Assembly: GCA_964579435.1 (NCBI GenBank)
Contig: CAZOGI010000001.1
Coordinates: forward strand, 157,907 to 221,906
Reading direction: 5' to 3'
From: an uncultured Planctomycetales bacterium
GTDB lineage: Bacteria; Omnitrophota; Gorgyraeia; Gygaellales; Profunditerraquicolaceae
DNA length: 64,000 nt
Made by a program: the position numbers and the translations under genes. This document shows positions 27,175-64,000 of the stretch, piece after piece. The notes beneath the pieces were generated by a model. That model was not told the DNA's origin. It was given only the letters and a program-made list of their open reading frames with translations, and did no database searches. Every line of letters begins with the position of its first letter. The stretch's first letter is position 1.

Positions 27175-27353
27175 AAAAAAAATCCCCGCCTGTGCCGTTG
27201 TAGCCTGGTGGGCTGTGAACCTTCCGGTTACACGTGGGTGCCCGCTCCGCAGGCACGCATGCGCCGCGGAAGAGAGGCTCCCTTTTTTTTGGTGTTGGCT
27301 CACCAATCACCAGGCTCTTGAACGAACACTGCAGGGACTCTTTTCTGCTGCAC
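27175..27353 (-). ncRNA. ssrS: Candidate 6S RNA (about 180 nt)
   Basis: It lies between a consensus sigma70 promoter and a U8 tract. Its 5' segment (27336-27308) pairs with its 3' segment (27210-27184) as a long closing stem. Both strands of the roughly 25/25-nt central bubble can form small hairpins. There is an imperfect 15-bp apical stem (27282-27236). It sits upstream of the ygfA homologue. Confidence 0.5.
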
Positions 27354-41530: not shown

Positions 41531-42391
41531 TTACCCCCCTGCCATTTTGTCGACGAGCCGAGACAGGTCGTCGGGAGAGTAGAATTCTATCGCGATCTCC
41601 CCCCTCTTTTTACGTCTCGTAATGCGGACCTTGGTTCCCAATGCCTGCTGAAGCCGCTCCTCCGCCGCAACCAGCGACGGATCCTTGCCGGCGAGGGAGC
41701 GTATGCGCTGCCGGACCGCGCGCGGCGAGCGCCGGCGCAGGAGCGTCTCGAGCTCCCGCACCGACAACGCCTTGATGACCGCCTCGTGTGCAAGACGCCG
41801 CTGCAGGTGCGGATCATCCAGTTCCAGGAGTGCCCTGCCATGCGCAAAACTCAGGCGGCCGCCGCGGATATCCTCCTGCACCTCTGCGGGCAGATTCAAC
41901 AGCCGCAGGGTATTGGCAACGCTCGCGCGCGCCTTGCCCAGCACCACACTGATACGTTCCTGAGTGATCTGGAACTTATCGATGAGGTATTGGTACGCGC
42001 GCGCCTCTTCGATCGCGTTGAGATCCTGACGCTGGATGTTTTCGATAAGCGCGATCTCCAGCGCTTCCTGGTCGTTTGCCTCTTTCAAAAGAACCGGGAT
42101 TTCGCTCAATTGCAGATGCTGTGCGGCGCGGAACCGTCGTTCACCGGCGATCAACTCGAATATATCGCCCTTCTTGCGCGCGACAACCGGTTGGATAACT
42201 CCCTTTTCTTTGATCGACTGTATCAATTCCTGCATCCGCACCGGATCAAAATCCTCCCGCGGCTGCAGCGGATTCGGCCGCACCTGCTCGATCTTGGCAA
42301 GGATAACCGCTCCGCTTTCTTCTTGCAAAGATGCCCGCTCAGGTAACAACGCACTCAATCCCTTTCCTAAAGCTCGTTTTTCCATCCGCAT
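41531..42391 (-). CDS. parB: Chromosome partitioning protein ParB/Spo0J
   Basis: LGKGLSALL, PNPLQPREDFD, IAGERRFRAA and an HTH region. Confidence 0.9.
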   Translation of the reverse strand: MRMEKRALGKGLSALLPERASLQEESGAVILAKIEQVRPNPLQPREDFDPVRMQELIQSIKEKGVIQPVVARKKGDIFELIAGERRFRAAQHLQLSEIPVLLKEANDQEALEIALIENIQRQDLNAIEEARAYQYLIDKFQITQERISVVLGKARASVANTLRLLNLPAEVQEDIRGGRLSFAHGRALLELDDPHLQRRLAHEAVIKALSVRELETLLRRRSPRAVRQRIRSLAGKDPSLVAAEERLQQALGTKVRITRRKKRGEIAIEFYSPDDLSRLVDKMAGG

Positions 42392-42393
42392 CC

Positions 42394-43200
42394 TCAGCTA
42401 TTTATGGTTCCCGAAGAATTATCCAGACTGAAATCTGGCTTGGGTATTCCTAAAATCTCGCAGGCAAGCTCTTCATACTTTTGAGCGCCTAATGAATCCT
42501 TGTCATACAAAGAGATTGGTTTGCCGTAACTCGGTGCCTCTGTTAATCTTATGTTTCTTGGAATGACTGTTTTATAAACTTTTTCTCTAAAATACCCTCG
42601 CACCTCTTGAATAACTTCTTTGGTAAGATTTGTCCGGAAATCGGCCATAGTTAAAAGGACCCCTTCAATTTCCAGTCCGGGGTTGAGTGTTTCACGAACC
42701 AGCTTGACGGTATTCATCAGCTGCGTCAATCCTTCTAACGCATAATATTCGCACTGAACGGGAATGATAAGCGAGTCTGCCGCACAGAGCGCATTGATCG
42801 TCAGTAACCCCAGCGATGGCGGCGAATCGATGATCACGAAATCGAAATTGTTCTTTTCCTCGACAAGCGAGCGCTTCAGCTTATACTCGCGCCCCAGAGC
42901 TCCGACGAGCTCAACCTCTGCGCCGGTCAGGTCAAGATTTGCCGGCGCCACAAAGAAATTCGGGACCGCGGTTTCAACAACAACCCCCGCCAGCTTCTCC
43001 TCCTCCAAGAGAATATGGTATGTACTCTTCTTTACATCGTGCCGATTAATGCCTGCGCCGCTCGTTGCATTTGCCTGGGGGTCAAGGTCGATCAACAGAA
43101 CCCGCTTTTGCGCGCGCGCCAGATAGGCGGAAAGATTGATTGAAGTTGTCGTTTTCCCTGTTCCACCCTTCTGGTTGCAGATTGAAATTACCTTACCCAT
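42394..43200 (-). CDS. parA: Chromosome partitioning ATPase ParA/Soj
   Basis: Deviant Walker A NQKGGTGKTTTSINL, with IIDSPPSLG. Confidence 0.92.
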   Translation of the reverse strand: MGKVISICNQKGGTGKTTTSINLSAYLARAQKRVLLIDLDPQANATSGAGINRHDVKKSTYHILLEEEKLAGVVVETAVPNFFVAPANLDLTGAEVELVGALGREYKLKRSLVEEKNNFDFVIIDSPPSLGLLTINALCAADSLIIPVQCEYYALEGLTQLMNTVKLVRETLNPGLEIEGVLLTMADFRTNLTKEVIQEVRGYFREKVYKTVIPRNIRLTEAPSYGKPISLYDKDSLGAQKYEELACEILGIPKPDFSLDNSSGTINS

Positions 43201-43222
43201 TTAATTTCAAATAGTTACAAAT

Positions 43223-43238
43223 TGTTCCACGCGGAACA
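43223..43238. promoter_or_regulatory. parS-like 16-bp imperfect palindrome
   Basis: TGTTCCACGCGGAACA matches the consensus tGTTTCACGTGAAACa at 13/16 positions and lies 23 nt upstream of the parA start. Confidence 0.45.
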
Positions 43239-43273
43239 TTTTGATTGCCCTTGATTCTTTATCTATTGTCCTT

Positions 43274-43501
43274 TTATTTTGCCGGCTTGTCAAGTTTTTT
43301 GTCTGCTGCCGGAACTACGCTTACCCTTACCTTGGCTGGCTTTGCCCCCGCCATACCAAATAGCCCTCTTTCTTCCTCGCTAAGCACTTCTATCTTCACT
43401 TGCTTACGCGGGACCTTGAGCGCAACCAGGGCTTTATTAATAGCGTCCTCGAGATTTTTACCCTCAACCTCGATACTTTGAAATTCTTTATGCGGGGACA
43501 T
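43274..43501 (-). CDS. Jag/KhpB N-terminal-domain-only protein (75 aa)
   Basis: IEVEGKNLEDAINKALVALKVPRKQVKIEVLSEEERGLFG matches the Jag_N pattern. It sits in the canonical position after yidC. I place the start at ATG 43501. No KH or R3H domains are present. Confidence 0.6.
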   Translation of the reverse strand: MSPHKEFQSIEVEGKNLEDAINKALVALKVPRKQVKIEVLSEEERGLFGMAGAKPAKVRVSVVPAADKKLDKPAK

Positions 43502-45023
43502 TCTTGTACACTCTCGCTTGATAAATAAGCATGAGAAGGCTATTCGTGATCCAGTACAAAACAAGTCCGGAGGGAACGCGGTAAAACGCCATTCCAAAAA
43601 TTATCGGCATTAAGAAAAGCATCATCTTCTGCTGTTCATTGGCTCCAGCGGTTTTACTCATGGATATCTTCTGTTGAAAGAACATCGCAAGAGCCATGAG
43701 GATTGGTAATAAATTAATTTCGTTGCCTAAAAGCGGGAGGTGATTGGGCAAAAGCGCAATCCGGTCAGGCTCGGAAAGATCCTTAATCCAGAAAAACTCC
43801 GCACCTTTTAACGCAATAGAGCGAGGAAGCAGTTGAAGGAAGGCAACAAAAACGGGCATTTGCAATAACAGCGGCAAGCAGCCGCCCAAGGGATTGACTT
43901 TATGCTCCCGAAATAACTTCATTTGTTCTTGCTGAAATTTCTGGGGATTATCCTTATACAACTTCCTTAACTCTTCGAGTCGAGGTTGAATCATTTGCAT
44001 CTCTTTCATCGACTTTGTTTGCTTTATGGTCAATGGAAATAGCGCTATAAAAATTGTGCATGAAACGCCAATGATGGCCCATCCCCAGTTATTGAATAAC
44101 CTGTGGAAAAACTCAAGCAATTGAAGCAAAATTTGTGATATAAAATCAAAGGTTCCAAAATGAATAATCGACGCATACTCGGGATCAGCTTCTGAAAGCA
44201 GCTTTATAATCTGTGGGCCGGCAAATAATTTCAAATTTAACGCCTTCTTTTCTCCTGGTTTTAGCTCCATCAACGACTGCGGACTAAACGTCACCACAGA
44301 AACATTTTTATCCGGACGCGAGATTGATCCGTTAATTTTTACTGAATCATCAGATTGGACAATTAAAGCATAATATCTTGTTTTGAAAGCAATGAAGTCA
44401 ACATCTTTAAAGTCTGCCTTCTTTGAAGGAGCATAGGTAGTTGTATTATTTTTTTCCCTACTCACCACAACACTACTATATTGTAAATCGCTTGCCCCCT
44501 GCTTCAAATCAAAACTTCCCAGAACAACTGGAAAATTTACCGTACGAACATTACTTCCAATATTCTCAACTTCAAATTTAAGATTTCCTTGAACACTATT
44601 CTTAAAAGATAGAATCCTTTTAATTCTAAATTCTCTATCTTCACTAACCGAAATAATGGAATTATTAATTAAATTAGATTCACTAATAATAAAATTATTA
44701 TTAAACCCAACTATTTCTAAGGCATTAAATAACAACATGTTACCACCACCAAAAACTTTTCCAAACTTCAACTCAAACAATGACCCGGTTAAGCCATTAA
44801 ATACCGCCTTAAAATGTCCAAAGTTAAATTCCTTTTTGGACATTTCTTTAACATTTTGCAGATCGTTCTTTTTTATTTCTGGCGGGAGGATTTCTTTTGA
44901 AGACAGCGGCTCTTGTTCAGATCGCAGAAGGAGCGGGGACGGCTGTTGCTTTGGCAAAACGGACGACCAAATAAACAATACCACCGCTGACAAGAAAATA
45001 GCCAAAATCAGTCTTTTTTCCAT
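43488..45023 (-). CDS. yidC: Membrane protein insertase YidC
   Basis: N-terminal TM helix, a large periplasmic domain, and the conserved C-terminal core (NPLGGCLPLLLQMPVF..., LPILMA, VPSGLVLYW). Confidence 0.92.
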   Translation of the reverse strand: MEKRLILAIFLSAVVLFIWSSVLPKQQPSPLLLRSEQEPLSSKEILPPEIKKNDLQNVKEMSKKEFNFGHFKAVFNGLTGSLFELKFGKVFGGGNMLLFNALEIVGFNNNFIISESNLINNSIISVSEDREFRIKRILSFKNSVQGNLKFEVENIGSNVRTVNFPVVLGSFDLKQGASDLQYSSVVVSREKNNTTTYAPSKKADFKDVDFIAFKTRYYALIVQSDDSVKINGSISRPDKNVSVVTFSPQSLMELKPGEKKALNLKLFAGPQIIKLLSEADPEYASIIHFGTFDFISQILLQLLEFFHRLFNNWGWAIIGVSCTIFIALFPLTIKQTKSMKEMQMIQPRLEELRKLYKDNPQKFQQEQMKLFREHKVNPLGGCLPLLLQMPVFVAFLQLLPRSIALKGAEFFWIKDLSEPDRIALLPNHLPLLGNEINLLPILMALAMFFQQKISMSKTAGANEQQKMMLFLMPIIFGMAFYRVPSGLVLYWITNSLLMLIYQARVYKNVPA

Positions 45024-45039
45024 TGTTTGCCTTTATGCG

Positions 45040-45255
45040 CTAATGAGGCGGATCATAGAGTGGGCCGCGGGTAAAAGGATGGCACCGCAAAATGCGCCGG
45101 CAGGCTTTTAAGCCGCCACACCAAAAACCCCACCGGGAAATCGATTCCTTCGCATACTCCGAACAACTGGGGATATAACGACAGCTGGGCGGCAGGAGCC
45201 CGCGGAAAAACCGCTGATACGTCGCAAGGAACAAAAGCGCTATCCGTCGGCCCAT
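45040..45255 (-). CDS. yidD: Membrane protein insertion efficiency factor YidD
   Basis: CRYIPSCSEYAKESI...RILRCHPF..GPLYDPP. Confidence 0.9.
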   Translation of the reverse strand: MGRRIALLFLATYQRFFRGLLPPSCRYIPSCSEYAKESISRWGFWCGGLKACRRILRCHPFTRGPLYDPPH

Positions 45256-45393
45256 TTAAGCCGCCAGGCGCTTTCTGCCCTTTTTCCGACGACGGGCGAT
45301 CAATTGCCTCCCGGTGCGCGTGCTCATCCTCGCCCGAAAACCATGCTTGCGTTTTGCGACGATCTTGGTCGGCGTCTTCAGATTTTTTTTCAT
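45256..45393 (-). CDS. rpmH: 50S ribosomal protein L34 (45 aa)
   Basis: Hand translation gives [56 protein letters not shown] lies upstream. It is below the ORF-track cutoff. The stop TAA abuts the yidD ATG. Confidence 0.9.
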
Positions 45394-45566
45394 TTTGCTC
45401 TCCCTCGGTAAGTGGCAACTCCGTCGAATTGGGATAAATTATAACACATTGTTATCTCAAGTCAACACTAAATGTTTCGACTCTAGAAAAATCTGCAAAG
45501 CAAAACCCCGATGGGATTTTCTCGGGCGGCGCAAAACACAGAAGGGACTGTCGTTTCAATTTTATG

Positions 45567-45594
45567 TTGACTTCCCGAAAAGGGGCTGTATAAT
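45567..45594 (+). promoter_or_regulatory. Candidate sigma70 promoter for dnaA
   Basis: TTGACT (45567-45572), a 16-nt spacer, then TATAAT (45589-45594), about 95 nt upstream of the dnaA ATG. Confidence 0.45.
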
Positions 45595-45639
45595 AATCAA
45601 ACGATTTTAAAATACCTGTCCTTTTTAGCCTGACAAAAT

Positions 45640-45690
45640 CTTTCCACAGAGTTATTCAGTTTGTTGATAAACTGTGGATTCTGTGCACAT
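45640..45690. promoter_or_regulatory. Cluster of three DnaA-box-like 9-mers
   Basis: CTTTCCACA (45640-45648), TGTGGATTC (45673-45681, reverse complement GAATCCACA) and palindromic TGTGCACA (45682-45689). Each matches TTATNCACA at 7/9. Confidence 0.35.
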
Positions 45691-47038
45691 GAACACACAA
45701 GACCTTTCTCTTATATGGAATACCGTCCGGGATACGCTGCGGGAAAAGCTCGGCGAGACGGTCTTTGAAACCTGGATAGCGCCCCTCCAGTGCAAAAACC
45801 AGTCGAAAGAGACGGTAACCATTGAAGCCCCCGATATATTTTTCTGCGAATGGATAGAGAAACACTACAAACTTGCTCTTTCACAAGCCTTCGGAAGCGT
45901 CACCAAAAGCCAACCTTCGGTCCTCCTGGAGGTAAGCGGGCAGACGCCACGACCGACCATCCCAGCGCCGGAAACCGCGCCGGCACCTCCAGAGAGCGCC
46001 TTCGAGCCGCATGAACGCGCCGGGCTGAACCCCCGCTATACATTCGACAATTTCGTGATCGGACCTTCCAACCGCCATGCACACGCCTATTCCCTCGCCG
46101 TCGCCGAATCCCCGGCAAAGTCGTACAACCCCCTTTTCATCTACGGGGGAGTGGGGTTGGGCAAAACGCACCTGATGCAGGCGATCTGCCACCACATCCG
46201 GCAAAAAAACGGGCCGCAGACAAAGATCTGCTATACCTCATCGGAAAAATTCATGAATGAGTTGATTTTGGCGATCAAGGACCGCTCGACGCACGAGTTC
46301 CGGCAAAAGTATCGCGGCCTTGACGTGCTCGTGATCGACGACGTACATTTCTTTGCCGGCCGGGAGGCAACCCAGGAAGAGTTCTTTCACACCTTCAACG
46401 CGCTCTACGACGAACACAAACAGATCATCATGTCTTCCGACCGTCCACCCCGGGAAATCGCCAACTTACAGGATCGCCTGGTATCTCGTTTCGGTTGGGG
46501 GCTGGCCACGGATATCCAGCCGCCCGACATGGAAACGCGCGTGGCGATACTCAAGAAAAAGATCGAGCGCGAACCCGTCCAGGTCCCCGACGATGTTTTG
46601 TTCTTTATCGCTCAACTTATCCGCACCAATATCCGCGAACTGGAAGGTGCCCTGGTCCGTACGATCGCGTATGCGCTGCTCGAAGAAGAGCCGATCACGC
46701 TGGGGTTGGCAAAACATGTTTTAAAGGATCTCCTCAAAGAACCCAAAAAATTGATCACTGTCGACTTTATTCAACGCTGTGTCGCCGAAGAATTCGGGAT
46801 ATCTCTCTACGACCTCAAAACGAAGCGCCGCACCCGCACCATTGTATTGCCGCGACAGATCGCCATGTATTTGAGCCGGGAGTTGACCGATTTATCTTTT
46901 CCGGAAATTGGCGGTTTTTTTGGGGGGAAAGACCATACGACGGTTTTGCATGCGTGTAACAAAATCAAGGAAGTGGTACGTACGGATGAGGTTTTACAAA
47001 GGCAAATTGAACACATTATCACGGTTATTAAACAATGA
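45689..47038 (+). CDS. dnaA: Chromosomal replication initiator DnaA
   Basis: Walker A GGVGLGKTHL, a box VII/sensor region, and the C-terminal DNA-binding domain (R..IVLPRQIAMYLSRELT..S.PEIG..FGGKDHTTVLHA). I prefer ATG 45689 over GTG 45674. Confidence 0.93.
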   Translation: MNTQDLSLIWNTVRDTLREKLGETVFETWIAPLQCKNQSKETVTIEAPDIFFCEWIEKHYKLALSQAFGSVTKSQPSVLLEVSGQTPRPTIPAPETAPAPPESAFEPHERAGLNPRYTFDNFVIGPSNRHAHAYSLAVAESPAKSYNPLFIYGGVGLGKTHLMQAICHHIRQKNGPQTKICYTSSEKFMNELILAIKDRSTHEFRQKYRGLDVLVIDDVHFFAGREATQEEFFHTFNALYDEHKQIIMSSDRPPREIANLQDRLVSRFGWGLATDIQPPDMETRVAILKKKIEREPVQVPDDVLFFIAQLIRTNIRELEGALVRTIAYALLEEEPITLGLAKHVLKDLLKEPKKLITVDFIQRCVAEEFGISLYDLKTKRRTRTIVLPRQIAMYLSRELTDLSFPEIGGFFGGKDHTTVLHACNKIKEVVRTDEVLQRQIEHIITVIKQ

Positions 47039-47047
47039 TTGCAGGGG

Positions 47048-47170
47048 GTATACACAGTCCTTTTTTGTGGTAACTTTTTTAATAGGTGTGAGATCGGAGG
47101 TTTTAAACAGGAATGTAACCGCATTACTATAATACGATTACTATTTTTTTAAAATTACTTATTAATAGTA
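47048..47170. other. Candidate oriC element: DnaA boxes plus an AT-rich unwinding region in the dnaA-dnaN spacer
   Basis: GTATACACA (47048-47056) matches at 8/9 and TGTGGTAAC (47066-47074) at 6/9. An AT-rich stretch then carries three ATTACTWAT repeats (47123-47130, 47137-47144, 47154-47162). Confidence 0.45.
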
Positions 47171-47185
47171 GAAAAGGAGTGGTTG

Positions 47186-48277
47186 ATGAAAATTAAGGCG
47201 AACAAAGAACAATTACTAACCGGAATTCAAACGGTATTAAATGTCATCAGTCCAAAATCTGCTTTACCAATTCTTTCTAATATACTCTTGGAGACGCAAA
47301 CCGATACACTGCGTTTAACCGCCACAGATCTTGATATTGGTATAAGCTGTGAAATAGCGGTGAATAACCAGGAGTCAGGGTCAATAACCGTTCCGGCCAA
47401 GCGATTTTATGAAATTATCCGGGAGTTGCCTGCGGATGAGGCAGTTATTACCTCGAAAAAGAATAATCAGGTCCATATAGAAACGACGACCTGTCAATTT
47501 AAAATTATGGGCCTGGCGCGGGAAGAATTCCCCCGACTCCCGGAATTTAAAGACCGCAATGTTGTTTCTTTGGATCAGGATTTAATGAAACACATGCTTC
47601 ACCTGACCGCTTTTGCCGTATCAAACGATGAGTCGCGGTATATCCTCAATGGGATCTTGGTGCAACTTTCAAAAAACACCGTGAGTATGGTGGCAACCGA
47701 CGGAAAGCGGCTGGCGGTGATTGAGCAAAAGACAAAGAAGGGGAGCGAAAAACCCATTTCTTTTATCGTTCCCAGCAAAACCATTCAGGAGCTCAACCGT
47801 AATTTGGGTGACACCGGGGAGGTATCGTTTATTTTGGGGAACAACCAGGTGCTGTTCGACCTGGGCAAGGTGATCATTATTTCCCGCCTCATAGAAGGGG
47901 AATTCCCCGATTATAAACAGGTTATGCCGCCGGCATCGGAGCAGAAGATTAAGGTGGATCGCGAGGCGCTTCTCTTGGCGGTACGCCGCGCGGCGCTCTT
48001 GTCGACGGTCGATTACCAGGCGGTGAAGTGGGAGGTGTTCAAGAATAAACTGGTTATTTCCAAGTCGACCCCGGATATCGGGGAGTCGCGGGAAGAGTTG
48101 GCCGTCGACTATGCCGGGAAGGAGATGATCATCGGTTTTAATCCGAATTATCTGACCGATGTTTTGAAGAATCTGCAGCATCAACTCGTCGAATTCGAGG
48201 TGACGGACAGCGAAAAACCGGGCGTGGTGCGGACCGACGGGTATACGTATATCGTTCTACCGATGCGTCTCGGATAG
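47186..48277 (+). CDS. dnaN: DNA polymerase III beta sliding clamp
   Basis: Three-domain clamp pattern (LSNILLE, ATDGKRLAV, GFNPNYL). SD GGAG lies 6 nt upstream of ATG 47186. Confidence 0.93.
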   Translation: MKIKANKEQLLTGIQTVLNVISPKSALPILSNILLETQTDTLRLTATDLDIGISCEIAVNNQESGSITVPAKRFYEIIRELPADEAVITSKKNNQVHIETTTCQFKIMGLAREEFPRLPEFKDRNVVSLDQDLMKHMLHLTAFAVSNDESRYILNGILVQLSKNTVSMVATDGKRLAVIEQKTKKGSEKPISFIVPSKTIQELNRNLGDTGEVSFILGNNQVLFDLGKVIIISRLIEGEFPDYKQVMPPASEQKIKVDREALLLAVRRAALLSTVDYQAVKWEVFKNKLVISKSTPDIGESREELAVDYAGKEMIIGFNPNYLTDVLKNLQHQLVEFEVTDSEKPGVVRTDGYTYIVLPMRLG

Positions 48278-55440: not shown

Positions 55441-56097
55441 ATGCTGTATATCGTCTCCACCCCCATAGGCAACCTGAAGGATCTTTCCCTGCGCGCGCAG
55501 TCGGTTTTGCGAGCGGTGTTCCTGATCGCCTGTGAGGATACCCGCCACAGCCGGATCCTGCTGGAGGAATACGGTATCACGACGCCGACGACGAGTTATT
55601 TTCAGCACAACCGTTTCTCCAAGGGCGCGTATCTGCTGGATCTCTTAAAAGGGGGGAAGGATATCGCCCTGATCGCAGACGCCGGTACCCCGGGGATTCT
55701 CGATCCCGGATACCATCTGATCAATCTGGCGATCGACGCAGGCATTCCGGTAACGGCGATCCCCGGGCCGGTGGCATTGATCTGCGCGCTCGTGCTCTCC
55801 GGAAAACCGGCGCACCGTTTCTTGTTTGAAGGGTTCCTGCCGGTCAAGCAGGCAGCGCGGCGCAACCGGCTGATCGCGCTCAAAGGCATGGATACCACCA
55901 TCGTCTGTTACGAATCCTGCCACCGGATCCTCAAGACCCTCGATGACCTGGCGGCGGTATTTCCCGACCGCACGCTCGTCCTCTGCCGCGAGCTCACCAA
56001 GAAGTTCGAGGAAGTGCTGCGCGCAAAACCGCAGGAACTTTCCCGCCTCCTTCGGGAACGGCCGCGCCCCAAGGGAGAGTTTGTTCTGGTCATTTAA
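55441..56097 (+). CDS. rsmI: 16S rRNA (cytidine1402-2'-O)-methyltransferase
   Basis: LYIVSTPIGNLKDLSLRA, CEDTRHS and ADAGTPGILDPG. Confidence 0.9.
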   Translation: MLYIVSTPIGNLKDLSLRAQSVLRAVFLIACEDTRHSRILLEEYGITTPTTSYFQHNRFSKGAYLLDLLKGGKDIALIADAGTPGILDPGYHLINLAIDAGIPVTAIPGPVALICALVLSGKPAHRFLFEGFLPVKQAARRNRLIALKGMDTTIVCYESCHRILKTLDDLAAVFPDRTLVLCRELTKKFEEVLRAKPQELSRLLRERPRPKGEFVLVI

Positions 56098-56290
56098 GCG
56101 CCAGAAACCGTTTTCGTTTTGCCGCCGTCGAGCCCTTGCATTTGCGCCTTCCCCGAGATACATTTTAAGTGCCATTTATACGGGTTGTTTTAGACAATGA
56201 TTCCTTCCGGCGTGGAGGGCGCCGGAGGGGGAGCCGGTTTGTGCCGGATCTGCCTTATGCAAAGGGTCAGGTCCGGCTTTCTTTTTGCCT

Positions 56291-59200
56291 ATGCACACGA
56301 CCAGCGTGAAAAAGACAGCAACGTTCATCCTCGCAGGTATCCTGCTCTTTGCGCACTCCCTTGGTCCGCGCGCGCTCGAAGCGGCTGCTCTGTCTCCTGT
56401 GAGCGCCGAAACTGCCTGGTTGCCTCCAGGGAATGCCAGCGCCTCTTTGCGGGGACTTTCGTATGAGCAAGGGCAAAACTGCTTCCGTCTCCTGTTCGAG
56501 CGCGCCGCGATCGCGGGCATCGGCCCCGCTGAACTGGATTCCCTGACACGCCGGTTTCTGAATTATTTTTTCATCGCCCTGGCGCTTCCCGAAGAGTCGT
56601 TCTGGGTGAATCTGCGGCCGGATAAACCCGACGGCATTATCGATCCCGCGCTTGCGCAGACAGCGGTCGGCGCCATTCTCCTGGAGACCGACCTGTTGCT
56701 TAAACAGGATACTGCCCGCGCCACCGCGCCGGATACGGCATCGGGGAGGCTGTATTGGGAAAAGCTCTATCGCAAGGCGCAGGAGTTGTATGGTTCGGCG
56801 CAGGTCAGTATCCCCACGCTGTGCCGCCCTTGGATCGTGCCGGAGGAGATCGTCATGCGCATGACGGCGGGCAACGCGTACGTGTACAAGGCGACTTTGA
56901 AGGTGATGCTGGAGGAGGATTATATACAAGACACAAGTCACCTGTCACCAGACACCGGTGTGATGAGGCAGTATGCGTTCGCGGATGAGCGGGCGAAAGA
57001 GTTGAATGAGTACGCCGCACAACTGATGCGCGAACTGGTCGTGCCGGAGCTGACGCGCAAGGTGAACAACGGACGGGAGTACGCCGCCCTGCGGCAGGTC
57101 TATCAGGCGCTGATTCTGGCGCAGTGGTTCAAGCGGACGGTCCGTTCTGGCGGCGCGTTCGCGCCGCTGGTCAACGGCGGGGCCCCTTCGTCGTTGCGGC
57201 TGCGGTCGCCGCCGGATGTGCGCGGGTACTTCCGTGCGTACCAGCGGCTCGTCCGGCAGGGTGCGTATGATATGCGGGCCGGCGGTTATGCCGGGGGGGA
57301 GCGAGTGGCGCGCCGCTATTTTTCCGGGGGCATTGTCCTGCGCGCCGGACCCGCGATCGACGCGGGAGGCTTTTCCGGCACCAGCGCAACTTTTCCTCCC
57401 GCAGGAACCGCCGCCTTGACCGTCGAAGTGGAAGCGAGTATGTCCGCGCGGGAGGTCGGGCAACCGCAACGCATCGTTGCCGCTGTTGTCCAGCCGCAGG
57501 CCGATGCGGGGATAGCCAGCGACCACCATGCCGGCACGACGCGCGCGCAGCACCTGGCATTTCATCGCGGCGGAGATTTTGCCACGGTTTTGCGCTGGAT
57601 CGCACAAGAAGATCTGGGTCTGGTTGCCGGCAGCGACGGGTGGTTCGATCTGCGCCGGCGGTTACAGGAGGAGCCCCAGAGGCGCCTCGTTTTTGACGGT
57701 CTTGATCGGCGCGGGCAGAAACGGCATACCGAGCTGCGCCTGGAATCTGACGGCGCGCTGGTAGTGGTAGACAGCCGCCTGCGCAAGGACCATGCCGGGA
57801 GAGGCCAATTTGCAGTCTATGCGCGCAACGAAGGCAAGGTGGTGCATGAGCTCTCGGAGCTGCGGTCATGGGCGGCATATGCCCGGGATGAGCTGGGGAT
57901 CATCACTGCTGCCGAGATCAGGGACGGGAAGCTGGGGATACGGCTGCGCCGCTGGATGAACGGACTGGGCGAAGACGAAGCACGGGATTTTTCCGTCGGG
58001 TCGTTTGAGATCAGCCGCAGACAAAAGCGGATCCGGGAAAAAGCCGATACGTTCCATCGCGACGCGCTTATCGAAGAGTTCGTCTTTTGGGCAAAACGGC
58101 AGAGATTACTGGGCACGGCCCAGACGGCATGGGAGCAGCTCCAAGAGGTCTGCGCGCAGGCGGGCACGCGGCCGCAGGAGCTGTTCCGCAGGTACCGCGC
58201 GCAGGAAGGGGTTTTCGAAATCTCGCCCCTCATGCAGGCGCTCTTAACACAGACGGACTTGGCGAAGTACAACTTTTTCGGCCTCCTTTTTGTCACCCGC
58301 CAAAATCTGCTGTCGCCGCTTGCGGTGCGCATCGCCGCGAAAATGAGCACCTATCCTTTGGTCTATGATCCCGACGGGCTCATCGATATTGAGGTGCGCC
58401 TCGTGGAGTATCTGCGCGCGGCTTTGGCGGCAAACCAGGAGCTGTTGGGGCCAGAGGGGGTGCGGGAGTGTCTTGCCACCGCCGCTCCCGTGCTGAGCGG
58501 ATTCTATCCGCACATGCATCAGCATCCGCTGGCTTGGGTAAGCCGGTATACCCAGGCCGAAATGCGTATCCGCGTGCTGCTGGCGGTGCGTTCTCTTGAG
58601 GATCTGATTACGGACGGGCGGCTTCCCGAGGAGCTGATCGCTTATCTGCAGGAGATCGGCTCGCTTGATCCGCTCATCGCCTTGGCCGACGAAAAGCTCC
58701 TCGCCGATTTTGGGATGTCCCTCCCGGTCCGCATGCGCGCGTTGCGTCAGGAGTATCCGGATTTCGTGCGGCGGTACCGGCAGCGGCAGGCGCTGCTTCC
58801 GGAGCCGGAAGAGGCAGAGGAGGAATTTGATTTCATCATCGCTTCCTCTGGAGGCGCGCCGGAGGGGGAAGCCGCAGCATCAGCCGCTGCGCTGCGCAGC
58901 ATCCTTGCGCCGCATCTGCTGGTGCCCGTTGACCTGGAGTTGGTCCTGCAGGCTGTCGAGCGCTCTCCTCGCCGAGAGGCTGCGCTTCAGGCGGTCACCG
59001 TTCTGTGCCGGGAGTTCGTGCGCAATAAGGTTACCCCGATAGACAGCGCGTTGCTCTTGCGCAGCTGCGCCAAATCTTCCTCGTTGAGCGAGGCGGCGCG
59101 GCTCTTTGCCCAGCACCAGCGGTACCTGCGCGTACTGCGGCTGGACCCGCAGCAGCAGCCGGCGATCGTGCGCGCGATCGCCCTTTCGGCGCAACCGGCC

Positions 59201-61489
59201 GAAGCGGCCCGGCGCGCACTGGGGTTTATGGCCGGCAACGCCGGATGGCTGCGCGAGCACAGTCGTCAGCTGCCCTTTGAAACGGTCCGCCTCCTGTTTT
59301 CGGGGACGCTGCAGGAACCGCTTCCGGCATTCGTTTGCGCGACCGCGCCGGTCGGCCATTTGGCGGAGCGCGGCGCACTGGCGGTGCAGCTCAATACCCT
59401 GCCCCGCGCCGTTACGGAATACATCATCGCCTATCTGCAAACCGTCCCGCCGGAAAAACAGTTTTCCTCTGTGCGCGGAATTAAAGAGATGGTGCGCAAC
59501 GGCGGCATGCTTCCCGAGGATACCCTGCAGGACTGGGAGCTGCTCTTGAACCGCTATATTGCGGATTTCGCCTTCCTTGCCTGCCGGCCGCTGATCCTCC
59601 TGCAGCGGCGGCTCTTTCGCGCCGAAGCCTTGCCCGAAGATGGGCTGCTCTCGATCGCTGCGACGGGAGAGGAGGGGGTTGCCCTCCTGGCCGCCCGGGT
59701 TGCGGCGATTAAAGAGGAGCTGTTCCTGCGCAGACAGATCCGCGAGCAGGACCTGCGACATCCGGCTTTTAAGGCGCTTGTTGCCTGGATAACCGGGTTT
59801 TCCAGCGCCAGTTGGGGCCACGGTAAGAACGAAGGGATGGAGTTGGATTATTTCCTTGAGCGGTTCAGGGCCACCGCGGCTCCTCCCCTTGATGCCGCGT
59901 TAACACAGGCGCCGCCTTCGTCTTTCAGCGTCCGCCCGGAAAGGATCGAGTTTACCGAGGATGAACGGCAGATGTATTCCCGCTATCAGCGTATTTTCTC
60001 TCGGGCGCTCTTGTTGTACCATCAGGCCGGATCCGCCGAAGCGACTCTTATCGTTCTGAAAGAGGAGGCGCGCAAAGAGCTCCTGCGGGCAACACGGGAG
60101 CTTGAGCGCTCACGCAAAGAGAGAGGGGCCGGCGCCGTTCTGGAGCATCTGGCCCGCCGGCAGCGGGCCTTCGAGCGCGCGCAGGCTGGCGTCGCCGCGG
60201 CCGCGACCCTCGAATCGTTCTGCTGGGAGATCGTCTCCGGCGTGCCCGAGGTTCTGGAGCACAGTCCGCTCCTGCAGGAACAGGTGATCGTCGCGCTCCT
60301 GCAGGAGGCTTTCCGTCAGGATCCCGCAGCCCTGGAGCGCATTGCCGAGATCGAGCAGGAAGAGCTCAGTATGCGTTCGCTTGACAAGATCCTTGCCTTC
60401 AAAAACGACTATTTCAATAAGATCGAACCGCCCAACTCGATCTTAAACGAACGGCCGCCCCAGGAGGCCAAGCAGATACTGCGGGTCTTTCGCGTGTCGA
60501 TTTTCGAACAGGTGTATGCGCGCACCAAAACCGTCTCACCGCCCGAAGAGGAGCCGTTGGTGCTGCGCGGATTTCTCACCCGGGATATCCTGGGTGAGCT
60601 GGCCGGGGACATCGGCGACGCCTGCTATACGGCGTTGCCGCACATCATGAATTACCCGGCGATGGTCGGAGCGCTCATCTTCACGACCGGGCAAGGGCTG
60701 GATGCGCGTTTTGCCGGGTCGGTCCTTGTCCTGAAGAATTCCGTTGCGGGAAAGCCGGTGTGGATCCTGCGCGGCATCAATCCGCAGGAAGATGTCGTCG
60801 CCGATTACAGCGCCGCGGATTTCCTGGACGGGGTTCTGCGCACCTGCGTGGAGCTGGCGCAGGCGTATAATGCCGCCCGCCCGCCGCAGGAGCAGGTACA
60901 CCGGATCCTGACCCCGGCTCTCGACGAAGGAGCTCTCAGCAATCAGCGCAAGATCAATTCCGTCGTCAAACAGCGGATTGGGCGCAGCCGGGCAGTTATT
61001 CTCGACCACAAAGAGACGTTTAATTTTCACGACATCACCGCTGCCTGTAAAGAATTGGCGACGATCGTCCCTGCTGCCCCGGAGGCGCGTGCGCAGGTCC
61101 CGGGGCCGCTCGTTGCGCAGTCGATTGCCTCATCCCCCGCGCCGGCGCCTCAAGGGCCTGAGACGCAGGTGGGGGGGATAGATCTTCGTTCATTGCCGAT
61201 GTTATCTGAGACGGGCTGGACGGCTGCGCCTGTTCCGGGGCGGGGAGGCGTAGATCTGGAACAGGAGTGGCGGCGTCTGCACCACCTGCTTTCTGCGGGG
61301 ATCGCGCCCTCCGCGCGCAGGATAGCGGATTGTGCCGCCGCCTGCAGCCGCAGCCCGGCGTTTCGCCAGGAATTCAGAGAGCGTCTTCTCGGCTGTATCA
61401 GTCAGACCTTGCTCATCCAGGAGCGGCGCGGGTGCGCTACCGAACCGCTCCTGCAGCGGGCGCTGATCCTTCTGGACAACGCCGAGTGA
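56291..61489 (+). CDS. Giant exported protein of unknown function (1,732 aa)
   Basis: It is an uninterrupted 5.2-kb ORF. ATG 56291 gives MHTTSVKKTATFILAGILLFAHSLGPRALEA (signal peptide or anchor). The sequence is rich in Leu, Ala, Arg and Glu residues. I recognise no catalytic or repeat family. Its N-terminal ~330 aa are paralogous to the next gene. Confidence 0.7.
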   Translation: MHTTSVKKTATFILAGILLFAHSLGPRALEAAALSPVSAETAWLPPGNASASLRGLSYEQGQNCFRLLFERAAIAGIGPAELDSLTRRFLNYFFIALALPEESFWVNLRPDKPDGIIDPALAQTAVGAILLETDLLLKQDTARATAPDTASGRLYWEKLYRKAQELYGSAQVSIPTLCRPWIVPEEIVMRMTAGNAYVYKATLKVMLEEDYIQDTSHLSPDTGVMRQYAFADERAKELNEYAAQLMRELVVPELTRKVNNGREYAALRQVYQALILAQWFKRTVRSGGAFAPLVNGGAPSSLRLRSPPDVRGYFRAYQRLVRQGAYDMRAGGYAGGERVARRYFSGGIVLRAGPAIDAGGFSGTSATFPPAGTAALTVEVEASMSAREVGQPQRIVAAVVQPQADAGIASDHHAGTTRAQHLAFHRGGDFATVLRWIAQEDLGLVAGSDGWFDLRRRLQEEPQRRLVFDGLDRRGQKRHTELRLESDGALVVVDSRLRKDHAGRGQFAVYARNEGKVVHELSELRSWAAYARDELGIITAAEIRDGKLGIRLRRWMNGLGEDEARDFSVGSFEISRRQKRIREKADTFHRDALIEEFVFWAKRQRLLGTAQTAWEQLQEVCAQAGTRPQELFRRYRAQEGVFEISPLMQALLTQTDLAKYNFFGLLFVTRQNLLSPLAVRIAAKMSTYPLVYDPDGLIDIEVRLVEYLRAALAANQELLGPEGVRECLATAAPVLSGFYPHMHQHPLAWVSRYTQAEMRIRVLLAVRSLEDLITDGRLPEELIAYLQEIGSLDPLIALADEKLLADFGMSLPVRMRALRQEYPDFVRRYRQRQALLPEPEEAEEEFDFIIASSGGAPEGEAAASAAALRSILAPHLLVPVDLELVLQAVERSPRREAALQAVTVLCREFVRNKVTPIDSALLLRSCAKSSSLSEAARLFAQHQRYLRVLRLDPQQQPAIVRAIALSAQPAEAARRALGFMAGNAGWLREHSRQLPFETVRLLFSGTLQEPLPAFVCATAPVGHLAERGALAVQLNTLPRAVTEYIIAYLQTVPPEKQFSSVRGIKEMVRNGGMLPEDTLQDWELLLNRYIADFAFLACRPLILLQRRLFRAEALPEDGLLSIAATGEEGVALLAARVAAIKEELFLRRQIREQDLRHPAFKALVAWITGFSSASWGHGKNEGMELDYFLERFRATAAPPLDAALTQAPPSSFSVRPERIEFTEDERQMYSRYQRIFSRALLLYHQAGSAEATLIVLKEEARKELLRATRELERSRKERGAGAVLEHLARRQRAFERAQAGVAAAATLESFCWEIVSGVPEVLEHSPLLQEQVIVALLQEAFRQDPAALERIAEIEQEELSMRSLDKILAFKNDYFNKIEPPNSILNERPPQEAKQILRVFRVSIFEQVYARTKTVSPPEEEPLVLRGFLTRDILGELAGDIGDACYTALPHIMNYPAMVGALIFTTGQGLDARFAGSVLVLKNSVAGKPVWILRGINPQEDVVADYSAADFLDGVLRTCVELAQAYNAARPPQEQVHRILTPALDEGALSNQRKINSVVKQRIGRSRAVILDHKETFNFHDITAACKELATIVPAAPEARAQVPGPLVAQSIASSPAPAPQGPETQVGGIDLRSLPMLSETGWTAAPVPGRGGVDLEQEWRRLHHLLSAGIAPSARRIADCAAACSRSPAFRQEFRERLLGCISQTLLIQERRGCATEPLLQRALILLDNAE
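56898..56992 (+). repeat. 95-nt near-identical tract, copy 1 (partner at 62241-62335)
   Basis: 92/95 nt are identical between the two paralogous genes. The mismatches are A/G, A/G and G/A. By eye, the flanking coding sequence is only roughly two-thirds identical. Confidence 0.85.
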
Positions 61490-61645
61490 GCCTGCTTTGG
61501 AGCAAGCGCTTTCCGTAAAACCCGCCCCGCGTCTTGTATCACTTCTCCCAACGGCTATATTTATTATTGGCTGATAACCACCTTTTTCCGGAACGCTGCG
61601 CCTGCGCTGATTTGGTACGGCTGTTTCGGGATACGTCCTTTCCTT

Positions 61646-64000
61646 ATGGCTCGAAAAGCAATCTGTCTAGGGCTCTGCTGTATCCTGCTCCTGCAGCAAT
61701 CCGGGTTTACGCAAGCTGTGGCGCCGGCAAAGGCACCGGTGTTGCCGTTGCCGTCGAGCGCCTCGGGGGAACGGTTCAGGCCTGCGCACCTGCGGTCTCT
61801 GGGCTATGATGAGCGCCAAACGCACCTGGAGCTTATCGTTGACCGGGGAGATCAGAAACAGCCGGGCTCATCCGAAGCAACAGAAACGACCCGCCGCCTT
61901 CTTTCATTTTTCCTCATCGGCATCAGCCTGCCCGAGAGATCCTTCTGGGTGAACCTGCGTCCCGATACCCCGCAAGAGATCATTGATCCGCTTCTGGCCC
62001 AGACCGACGTCGGCAAGATCATGCTGGAGGCGGACCTGCAGCTCAAAAAAGATACGGCAGCCGCGACCTCTCCACAGACCCCGGGGGGGAAGGCGTATTG
62101 GGATAAACTGTACCGCAGGGCAGAAGAGCTTTTCGGCGGCAGCCGGATGTCCTTTCCCACTCTCTCTCGGCCCTGGATTGTCCCGGGGGAGATCATTGTG
62201 CGCGAGACTTCCCGGAACGCATACGTCTATAAAGCGACGCTGAAGGTGATGCTGGAGGAGGATTATATACGAGACACAAGTCACCTGTCACCGGACACCA
62301 GTGTGATGAGGCAGTATGCGTTCGCGGATGAGCGGCTCAGGCAGCTCAATGCCTACGCCGCGCAGCTGATGCGCGAGCTGATTATTCCGGAGCTGACGCG
62401 CAAAGTCAATACCGAGCGTTCGTATGCCCCGCTTCGCCAGGTGTATTATGCGCTGATCCTGGCGCAATGGTTTAAGCGGCGCTTCCGCGGCGCCGGCGGC
62501 CTTTACGCGGAAAGGATCGACAGCGCCGATCTGCTCGGTTTGCGCTCAGCGCAGACTGCCGACGTTCAGGAGTACTATAGGCGGTATCAACAATCGTTCC
62601 GGGACGGGGAATATCGTTTGCAGGCCCCTGCCTATTCGCTGTCCGGAAAAAGCGTGCGCCACTATTTTTCCGGGGGCATTCAGCCGCTCCCGTCCCAACT
62701 GCCGGCGCCCGGAAAATCCGAAACGCTTCCGGGCGGGGGGCTTTATTCCTCGGTTGATGCCAGCGCCCACAGGCGCTTGCCGCAGGACCCTGATCGCGGC
62801 CTGCGTTTTAGCGTCGGGGTGAGTCAAGCGCTGGCTCCTGTTCCGGGCCTGGAGCCGTCGGTTCCCGCAGCGGTCCCCGGGGCGCTGCTTGTCACCGCCG
62901 GGAGCACATACGCCCCAACGGCTTCTCCTCAAGAGAATGCGGAGGCGCTTGTGCGGCTGTTCCTGGGGATCGGTGCCGGCGAGGACCTCGCCGCAGCCCT
63001 CGAAGCGCAGTTTAAGGCCGATCCCACCGAGCTCCTCAACGCCGCGCGTGAAATGCAAGCGGCGCGCGCACTGCCATCTCTTTTTCAGGGCCGCAGGCAT
63101 TTCATCTCTTCGTTCTTTGCGGAAAACGACGCCGCAGGTGCCGCGGGCAAAGAGGTGCTGCAGGCGGCCGCCGAACGCCTTTTTGTTTTTCTTGTCGAAC
63201 ACATAGCCCAAGAAGATCATCAGCCGCCGGCTCCCGAAGCATCCCCAGAGGCGCTGATCCGCGCCGGCAACAAGGTGGTTCTTGAAGACGGAAGCAGCGT
63301 CCTCATAACCCACGCGATCAGCGTCGGCGAATCTCGCCCCGGGGAGCAGTCGCAAGACGGTCGCACTACGCGGCCTCAGGCGCACGCCTTCGGCGCCGAA
63401 GGCGTTTTTTACGGTCTCTACGTGCGCGACCGCGGCACCCGAACGATTTATCTGGATCGCGCCGGCCTTGCCGAACGCTTGCAGGATCCGCACCAGCGAC
63501 GGGCTTTTGCCCGCGTCCTGGGAAGGGAGTCATTCAGCATCGAAGATGCGGCGCGTTTCCTTGACGGACACGAGACGTTCCATGCCCTGGTTGATGAACT
63601 GCGTCTGCGGGAAGAGTTGCCCGAGATGAGCCAGGAGCAGGAGGAGGCATTGGCGGACCTGTTCGGCAGGGATTTTGCTTTCGGCGAGGTGACGCTGGAT
63701 ATTCGCCTGCAATCCTTGCTGACGAAGATGAGCAGGCTGCTGCGGGTGGATGTCGCGCGGGTGCTGCGCAAGAGAGGAACGATCGAAGAGGCGCTCGGCT
63801 ATCTGGGCATCTTTGTTTCCCTGGAGTGGTCGGTCTCCGGCAGCGAGCTTGCCCGCCTTGCCCGGGCGCCTGCGCCGGCGGGAGAGCGGCTGGTACGGCC
63901 TTTCCTGGTGACCGAGCGTACGGCCCTGACCCCTACGCCTAACCGCCGCGATAACGCTTTTGAAGACATGATCGCCCGCTCCAGCTCGCGTTCGCGCGCG
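61646..64000 (+). CDS. Second giant exported protein, paralogue of the preceding gene (first 785 aa; runs off the right edge)
   Basis: Hand translation from ATG 61646 gives MARKAICLGLCCILLLQQSGFTQAVAPA..., with no stop to position 64000. It is absent from the ORF track because it is open-ended. It shares FWVNLRPD, RPWIVP, NAYVYKATLKVMLEEDYI, RQVY.ALILAQWFKR and HYFSGGI blocks with the upstream gene. Confidence 0.65.
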   Translation, partial: MARKAICLGLCCILLLQQSGFTQAVAPAKAPVLPLPSSASGERFRPAHLRSLGYDERQTHLELIVDRGDQKQPGSSEATETTRRLLSFFLIGISLPERSFWVNLRPDTPQEIIDPLLAQTDVGKIMLEADLQLKKDTAAATSPQTPGGKAYWDKLYRRAEELFGGSRMSFPTLSRPWIVPGEIIVRETSRNAYVYKATLKVMLEEDYIRDTSHLSPDTSVMRQYAFADERLRQLNAYAAQLMRELIIPELTRKVNTERSYAPLRQVYYALILAQWFKRRFRGAGGLYAERIDSADLLGLRSAQTADVQEYYRRYQQSFRDGEYRLQAPAYSLSGKSVRHYFSGGIQPLPSQLPAPGKSETLPGGGLYSSVDASAHRRLPQDPDRGLRFSVGVSQALAPVPGLEPSVPAAVPGALLVTAGSTYAPTASPQENAEALVRLFLGIGAGEDLAAALEAQFKADPTELLNAAREMQAARALPSLFQGRRHFISSFFAENDAAGAAGKEVLQAAAERLFVFLVEHIAQEDHQPPAPEASPEALIRAGNKVVLEDGSSVLITHAISVGESRPGEQSQDGRTTRPQAHAFGAEGVFYGLYVRDRGTRTIYLDRAGLAERLQDPHQRRAFARVLGRESFSIEDAARFLDGHETFHALVDELRLREELPEMSQEQEEALADLFGRDFAFGEVTLDIRLQSLLTKMSRLLRVDVARVLRKRGTIEEALGYLGIFVSLEWSVSGSELARLARAPAPAGERLVRPFLVTERTALTPTPNRRDNAFEDMIARSSSRSRA
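62241..62335 (+). repeat. 95-nt near-identical tract, copy 2 (partner at 56898-56992)
   Basis: Same as copy 1. It encodes KVMLEEDYIRDTSHLSPDTSVMRQYAFADER. Confidence 0.85.

Follow-up and report, generated by a model that had tools for sequence, protein, structure and literature searches.

A 95-nucleotide tract shared by two tandem genes of an uncultured Omnitrophota bacterium, probably left by recent gene conversion

Gene conversion and concerted evolution between bacterial paralogues are known from tufA/tufB in Salmonella and from rRNA operons, and segmental gene conversion serves surface variation in Neisseria (pilE/pilS) and Borrelia (vlsE). Santoyo and Romero are said to have reviewed gene conversion in bacteria (FEMS Microbiol Rev 2005). 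Here we describe a short tract of near-identity between two tandem genes of an uncultured bacterium of the phylum Omnitrophota, deposited as a Planctomycetales bacterium (assembly GCA_964579435.1, contig CAZOGI010000001.1, positions 157,907 to 221,906 of the forward strand). This stretch of 64,000 nucleotides (nt) is referred to as the window, and positions are counted from its first letter. The two genes, gene 1 (56285..61489) and gene 2 (61646..64000), both lie on the plus strand and are homologous in their N-terminal modules. Within these modules 95 nt differ at only three positions, in surroundings that have diverged heavily. The tract adds a further example of a well-known process and is not a new kind of element; it is probably the trace of a recent gene conversion.

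The first copy of the tract (56898..56992, plus strand) encodes KVMLEEDYIQDTSHLSPDTGVMRQYAFADER of gene 1, and the second (62241..62335, plus strand) encodes KVMLEEDYIRDTSHLSPDTSVMRQYAFADER of gene 2. The copies lie 5.3 kb apart and in register, with an offset of 5343 (3 x 1781), and are identical at 92 of 95 positions, the count given in the original prediction. The differences (copy 1/copy 2) are A/G at 56928, A/G at 56950 and G/A at 56957, corresponding to 62271, 62293 and 62300 in copy 2, and they leave uninterrupted runs of identity of 30, 21 and 35 nt. The background is provided by the homologous block of the N-terminal domain, which aligns gap-free and in register (56585..57145 in gene 1 and 61928..62488 in gene 2, plus strand) and is only 62-65% identical in nucleotide sequence outside the tract. 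Both edges are sharp: the 14 nt ahead of 56898 hold five differences, and the 12 nt (four codons) that follow 56992 hold eight. The tract is also locally the least GC-rich part of the sequence (48-53% versus 62-63%).

The identity extends to synonymous sites. Among degenerate conserved codons, 26 are identical and one differs synonymously within the tract, compared with 50 and 60, respectively, in the flanks (Fisher p = 5e-7). Given the 45% codon identity of the flanks, 26 identical codons of 27 correspond to a binomial tail of ~2e-8. The best 27-codon window in a permutation scan has p = 4e-5, and a maximal-segment permutation on synonymous codon identity gives p = 0.0015 for the window pair. 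Synonymous (dS) and non-synonymous (dN) divergence, estimated by the method of Nei and Gojobori, are 0.053 and 0.028 in the tract and 1.2-3.6 (saturated) and 0.19-0.26 in the flanks, so that dS drops locally by more than 20-fold. Third-position identity is 0.97 in the tract and 0.40-0.51 in the flanks. Only 3 of 12,512 between-genome pairs in the domain family reach 24 identical synonymous codons of 25. The adjoining peptide on the left, AYVYKATL, is equally conserved and shows six synonymous differences across its eight codons, which indicates that strong protein conservation alone does not suppress synonymous change here. The near-identity is real and statistically solid. The original prediction had judged the flanks by eye to be diverged at synonymous sites as well, had named a dS profile as the means of checking this, and had held that the nucleotide identity exceeds what the protein needs; the values above bear it out on each point.

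A shorter patch of identity is found further downstream in both genes, at 57310-57334 (plus strand) and 62656-62680. It matches at 24 of 25 nt and encodes R(R/H)YFSGGI, and its offset is 5346 rather than 5343. The seven identical conserved codons of this patch have an uncorrected p of ~0.004; when the number of possible windows is allowed for, the patch is not significant, and it was not retained as a second island.

The tract resembles the converted segments of tufA/tufB and rRNA operons in being a sharp-edged stretch of near-identity, synonymous sites included, within diverged surroundings and between close copies on one replicon. It differs from them in that the background divergence is ~35-38% at the nucleotide level, the tract is only 95 nt long, and the genes share only a domain-sized module. 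With pilE/pilS and vlsE the locus shares membership of a multi-copy family, short mosaic patches, and a hypervariable loop between stretches of conserved sequence that could guide exchange. In contrast to those systems, which have an expression site, silent cassettes and an initiating element, the window shows no such architecture, and the patches in other genomes of this family are not restricted to the variable loop.

The shared N-terminal domain (56540-57360 and 61883-62703, plus strand) comprises ~270 amino acids (aa) and belongs to a family almost confined to metagenome-assembled genomes (MAGs) of Omnitrophota. The domain was matched by 259 proteins, by 419 loci of the genome collection and by at least 377 metagenomic loci, none of which exceeds 54% identity to the window, while searches of Pfam, NCBIfam, PDB sequences and, with Foldseek, PDB folds gave no match. 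Members often occur in several copies and in tandem (three copies each in L097 and L108, two each in L139, L045 and L070). In the family alignment the tract spans the conserved KVMLEEDY, a loop of ~3 to ~40 residues with no sequence conservation, and the conserved Y.F.D.R. The centre of the tract, QDTSHLSPDTGVMRQ, falls in this loop, whose length and sequence differ among family members and also between the copies in most other genomes. An AlphaFold model of the domain (mean pLDDT 78.5, pTM 0.78) places the tract at residues 121-151, where a strand ends and is followed by a short helix, a loop modelled with low confidence and the beginning of a long helix. Two of the three tract differences are non-synonymous and lie in the loop. 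The combination of a hypervariable loop with two non-synonymous differences argues that the near-identity reflects recency and not constraint.

As no close relatives of the window genes were found in the collections searched, a family-wide test of synonymous sites was used in place of an orthologue comparison. The codon alignment holds 159 distinct domain copies from 160 sources (159 fetched loci and the window), and each column was scored by the frequency with which sequences carrying the same residue share a codon. At the conserved columns of the tract this frequency, over the 157 other members, is ~0.5 for residues with two-fold degenerate codons (K, E, D, Y and F), ~0.3 for the four-fold V and 0.20-0.25 for the six-fold L and R. 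These values are those expected from degeneracy, and the 157 homologues therefore give no sign of synonymous constraint at the tract columns. The family has no embedded nucleotide-level element in common at this site.

Comparable islands are present in other Omnitrophota genomes, again between copies of the same genome, with 92-98% identity against a background of 64-71%. On two contigs of one MAG, L050 (8343-8509) and L076 (8346-8512) are identical at 154 of 167 positions and at 64% outside; this island occupies the same position in the domain as the tract in the window, with a longer loop of unrelated sequence. The tandem copies of L139 (8511-8632 and 3166-3287) share 120 of 122 positions just downstream of the loop (71% outside). 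In the C-terminal part of the domain, L045 (8565-8785) and L056 (8571-8791) share 203 of 221 positions, again with 71% outside. Applying the maximal-segment permutation to the family, clustered synonymous identity at p<0.01 is seen in 4 of 32 within-genome pairs and, among 250 pairs sampled between genomes, in 2 (Fisher 0.0018). Mosaic identity in this family is thus a within-genome phenomenon, as conversion predicts and a conserved cis element does not. One further island, of 83/86 nt with 68% identity outside, joins members from different MAGs (JAUSCZ and MHGF): it lies at ~8019-8104 in L045 and at the same offset in L047, the coordinates being approximate because they were taken from alignment offsets. 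This case could reflect recombination between lineages or unsampled paralogues.

Our preferred explanation, with a probability of roughly 0.7, is that a short stretch of one N-terminal module was recently overwritten by gene conversion, the donor being the module of the neighbouring tandem gene or a third copy that has not been seen. Gene conversion was among the proposals of the original prediction, and it is supported by the compact block with its sharp edges, a loss of divergence that is uniform over the classes of site, the inclusion of a hypervariable loop, the lack of constraint across the family and the recurrence of such islands in other genomes. The modules would derive from a duplication that is old, given the saturation of synonymous sites in the flanks. 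Much later, a heteroduplex would have formed between the two copies, or with the third, and its repair or resolution would have copied one sequence over the other, across a segment that begins where a beta-strand ends, includes the variable surface loop and enters the helix that follows. This would amount to non-reciprocal homologous recombination over ~95 bp, and at most ~100 bp. We infer RecA-type exchange or template switching as the pathway and, likewise, the direction of transfer. The contrast between a dS of 0.05 in the tract and at least 1.2 outside it suggests that the event dates to no more than roughly the final 4% of the period since the duplication. The three substitutions that now distinguish the copies would have accumulated after the conversion. 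The original prediction had also proposed a substrate for recombination or phase variation, which is a possible consequence of the conversion: the identical runs of 30-35 nt could seed further exchange, including an in-frame deletion or duplication of 5,343 bp that would swap the gene bodies.

All three of these substitutions are G/A differences at CpG/CpA dinucleotides (TACGAGA/TACAAGA, ACCGGAC/ACCAGAC and ACCGGTG/ACCAGTG), and two of the three are CCGG/CCAG. Plausibly the ancestral tract read G at each of these positions (CACCGGACACCGGTG), and copy 1 then underwent two transitions and copy 2 one, all of them independent. The original prediction had described two of the differences as a reciprocal A/G swap. 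Opposite A/G changes are indeed present at these positions, but two CpG/CpA transitions that arose independently are the better reading. A possible 6-bp hairpin, CACCNG-ACA-CCNGTG, can be drawn around them, in which the variable bases face an invariant C and not each other, leaving one mismatch per copy at different rungs; the swap was rejected as a compensatory pair since the variable bases do not pair together. Decay of CpG driven by methylation and deamination is speculative as an account of the substitutions, because CpG is not depleted genome-wide (observed/expected 1.22), and it was set aside as unsupported.

The tract also contains a sigma-70-type promoter-like site on the minus strand. 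In copy 1 (56919..56948) the site consists of GTGACA (56948-56943), an 18-nt spacer and TATAAT (56924-56919), and it matches the consensus at 11 of 12 positions; the predicted start lies near 56912 and is directed towards the 5' end of gene 1. Copy 2 carries the identical site (62262..62291, minus strand; GTGACA-18-TATAAT, 11/12). Sites of at least 11/12 are rare in the window, where six were found on both strands together against 0.075 expected under a first-order Markov model. The other four are at 45567-45594 (plus strand), ~80 nt upstream of dnaA; at 45465-45438 (minus strand), 45 nt upstream of rpmH; at 27387-27359 (minus strand; TTGACA-17-TATACT), directly upstream of a 6S RNA gene (27179-27340, minus strand; Rfam RF00013, 61.4 bits); and at 26364-26336 (minus strand), upstream of a Shine-Dalgarno-like sequence. 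That at least three of these four precede dnaA, rpmH or the 6S RNA gene suggests that near-consensus sites in this genome are real promoters, and the antisense one in the tract may well be active. Pervasive antisense transcription is known to arise from intragenic promoters in the AT-richer tracts of GC-rich genomes. The site resembles such promoters in its near-consensus hexamers, its 18-nt spacer, its antisense orientation within a coding region and the locally low GC content. It differs from them in being duplicated in two genes by way of the island and in being unconserved in homologues, and it is a predicted site. If the tract was converted, the event would have duplicated the site into both genes as a by-product.

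Several observations weigh against a simple gene conversion. The tract is carried by two sequences only, and, unlike in tufA/tufB and the rRNA operons, there is no outgroup with which a conflict between the trees of tract and flanks could be seen. No orthologue or close relative beyond 54% aa identity was found by an exact look-up of gene 1, the family search, the genome scan or two metagenome scans. A background nucleotide identity of 62-65% is low for RecA-dependent exchange. If the sequence comes from a metagenome assembly, an artefact of consensus polishing is possible. The three differences are not random scatter: the tract holds seven CpG, and the probability that all three would fall on the G of a CpG is ~4e-4 under uniform mutation. 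An 11/12 promoter-like site in a given 95-nt stretch has a probability of the order of 1e-4 to 1e-3 under the window-wide null, a coincidence that leaves room for selection having helped to fix or preserve the patch. Neutral conversion does not fully explain either this coincidence or the CpG pattern.

Among the alternatives, purifying selection on a cis element would make the antisense sigma-70-type promoter and its flanks, both upstream and initially transcribed, the conserved entity, with an antisense RNA over the 5' part of each large gene modulating its expression. The presence of the site in both copies, the rarity of such sites in the window and the position of at least three of the other four ahead of dnaA, rpmH and the 6S RNA gene are in keeping with this, as is the origin of both hexamers from minority codons (ATA and TCA). 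In addition, relative to the hexamers the 95 nt extend from about -80 to about +15, which would approximate the extended contact region of RNA polymerase. However, a promoter constrains about 12 bases and the length of the spacer, whereas the spacer itself and the flanks are equally invariant; the site covers 30 of the 95 nt, and about a dozen constrained bases leave the freezing of 27 synonymous sites unexplained. A match of at least 9/12 at this column is present in just 9 of the 159 family members, the two window copies among them, with a single other member reaching 10/12, and synonymous identity in the family is neutral. Conserved peptides can evidently mimic promoters by themselves, as antisense matches of at least 9/12 are seen in 56 of 159 members at the IIPKLT..VN column. 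One mimic of this type occurs in gene 2 at 62381-62409 (minus strand), where the conserved peptide IIPELT..VN generates TTGACT-17-AATAAT (10/12). The islands of other genomes have no promoter-like site, there is no conserved antisense open reading frame (ORF) or terminator downstream of the one in the tract, RNA folds of the region are no better than shuffles, and its GC content at third codon positions (GC3) is unexceptional. On the grounds that it is poorly conserved in the family, that peptides produce mimics elsewhere, that other islands lack it and that GC3 is ordinary, the promoter-like site is probably a passenger, and we regard a selected cis element as unlikely. The cis-element proposal of the original prediction is mostly unsupported: RNA structure, Rfam families and the palindrome discussed below lend it nothing, and it survives in part through this antisense site, which the family does not conserve. 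Protein constraint with a common codon preference has in its favour that KVMLEEDY and Y.F.D.R rank with the best-conserved peptides in the family. Against it, most synonymous sites differ in neighbouring peptides that are just as conserved, codon identity in the flanks makes 26 of 27 a matter of p ~2e-8, the copies share the minority codons ATA, ACA, AGT, TCA and AGG (each 6-13% of its codon family), and the central loop is unconserved. The codon, neighbouring-peptide and family-wide tests effectively refute this explanation, and there is next to no chance that it suffices.

The tract might instead be a substrate for recombination that is maintained as such, used for conversion of the loop or for crossovers that swap gene bodies, so as to diversify a secreted or surface-located protein much as antigenic-variation cassettes do. 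The family is multi-copy and often tandem, its loop is hypervariable, and two independent genomes (the window and L050/L076) have an island on the same loop. The runs of 30, 21 and 35 nt are close to the minimal length for RecA-type exchange in Escherichia coli. The copies are direct repeats whose offset is a multiple of three, and an unequal crossover would therefore give an in-frame chimera of the gene 1 N-terminus with the gene 2 body. On the other hand, the islands of L139 and L045/L056 are elsewhere in the domain, 28 of 32 same-genome pairs have unrelated loops and no island, and the borders of the tract show no recombinase, invertase or repeat motif, nor is there a silent-cassette architecture. 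Undirected conversion in any multigene family would yield the same pattern, and a maintained substrate seems very unlikely. An artefact of assembly or polishing, in which reads from one copy set the consensus of the other at the most similar part of the domain, deserves attention because nearly all of the family comes from metagenome-assembled genomes, with many members cut at contig ends, and the exact gene 1 protein is not on record. Nevertheless, the flanks are too diverged on both sides for reads of at least 100 nt to be mismapped, the three differences persist and so the copies were resolved separately, comparable islands occur in independent assemblies from different pipelines, and GC skew and gene order are coherent across the window. 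We find an artefact highly improbable. A final variant keeps conversion and adds selection to it, the patch being a selected module that is either (a) a functional antisense promoter installed by conversion and co-regulating both genes or (b) the outcome of segmental conversion that shuffles the loop; this has an outside chance of being correct.

Other kinds of element were considered for the tract. Eight RNA folds, covering the tract, the tract with its flanks and control flanks on both strands and in both copies, gave z-scores of -1.03 to +2.14 against dinucleotide shuffles, and Rfam had no match at E<=1 over 56000-64000. With no fold below z -1.03 and no Rfam match, a structured RNA within the coding sequence was rejected; the folding on both strands proposed in the original prediction thus turned up nothing more stable than shuffles. 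The 10-bp palindrome ACACCGGTGT (56952..56961) is perfect in copy 1 and broken in copy 2 (ACACCAGTGT), just as had been described. It is one of 136 perfect 10-bp palindromes in the window, and as such it is ordinary and was not accepted as a binding site. Antisense and alternative-frame ORFs show no conservation past the tract, which removes an overlapping gene from consideration. A cluster of rare codons or a translational pause was also dismissed. The GC3 of the tract is 0.65 compared with a mean of 0.73 for gene 1, and 199 of 1703 gene 1 windows have an equal or lower value; rare-codon density is likewise unexceptional within gene 1, although the codon-usage table included low-GC genes of the origin region, so that only the GC3 result is clean. 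The tract has only two copies within the window and no match in plasmid and phage collections, and it was accordingly rejected as a mobile, repeated or dispersed element.

Omnitrophota and their relatives carry diversity-generating retroelements, and the pair of copies bears a superficial likeness to the template and variable repeats (TR/VR) of such elements, with two near-identical sequences of ~100 nt in which every difference involves adenine in one copy. It differs from these in that the mismatches run in both directions (A, A, G versus G, G, A), are of the CpG/CpA type and not A-to-N, and leave ~25 other adenines unchanged. Both copies in the window are also coding and near the N-terminus. 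A diversity-generating retroelement was rejected on the direction and type of the mismatches and on the many unchanged adenines.

Gene 1 encodes 1734 aa from a TTG at 56285, or 1732 aa from an ATG at 56291. Its product begins with a signal-peptide-like N-terminus, followed by the Omnitrophota-specific domain and a body with no recognised domains. Gene 2 starts with an ATG at 61646 and is cut by the end of the window (>784 aa); its N-terminus fits the family consensus M..K...LL.QQ.GF.Q. Homology between the products is confined to the first ~370 aa (53% identity by BLASTP), and the gene bodies are unrelated. The two genes had been described as giant paralogues. This holds for the homologous N-terminal ~370 aa, but the genes are not paralogous over their whole length, and they are large rather than giant. 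Upstream of both large genes, no sigma-70-type match of at least 9/12 was found on the plus strand (56098-56284 and 61490-61645). The gap before gene 2 contains an AT-rich stretch at ~61555-61580.

The genes at 41.5-56.1 kb, upstream of gene 1, are parB, parA, yidC and rpmH on the minus strand and dnaA, dnaN, gyrB, gyrA, glmS and a methylase-family gene, together with tRNA-Glu, on the plus strand. The cumulative GC skew reaches its minimum near 46 kb, which places genes 1 and 2 ~10 kb from the replication origin. A trough in GC content at 42000-48000 (0.43-0.48 versus ~0.61 elsewhere) covers parA, yidC, rpmH, dnaA and dnaN. It is odd for core genes to lie 15 points below the GC content of the genome.

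Gene conversion between the N-terminal modules would add a clean short-tract case from a poorly known uncultured phylum. The module heads many large proteins of Omnitrophota, and its mosaic evolution within genomes would affect tree building and the calling of orthologues. At the practical level, copies that share identity patches of at least 30-35 nt can cause breaks or false joins in short-read assemblies. A testable hypothesis on the regulation of the large genes, of modest secondary interest, comes from the duplicated antisense promoter-like site. Should conversion have installed a functional promoter, both large genes would be co-regulated by antisense transcription over their 5' regions. 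Should segmental conversion instead act on the loop, this Omnitrophota family would be shuffling surface-exposed sequence between large secreted proteins, a process that to our knowledge is undescribed for this phylum.

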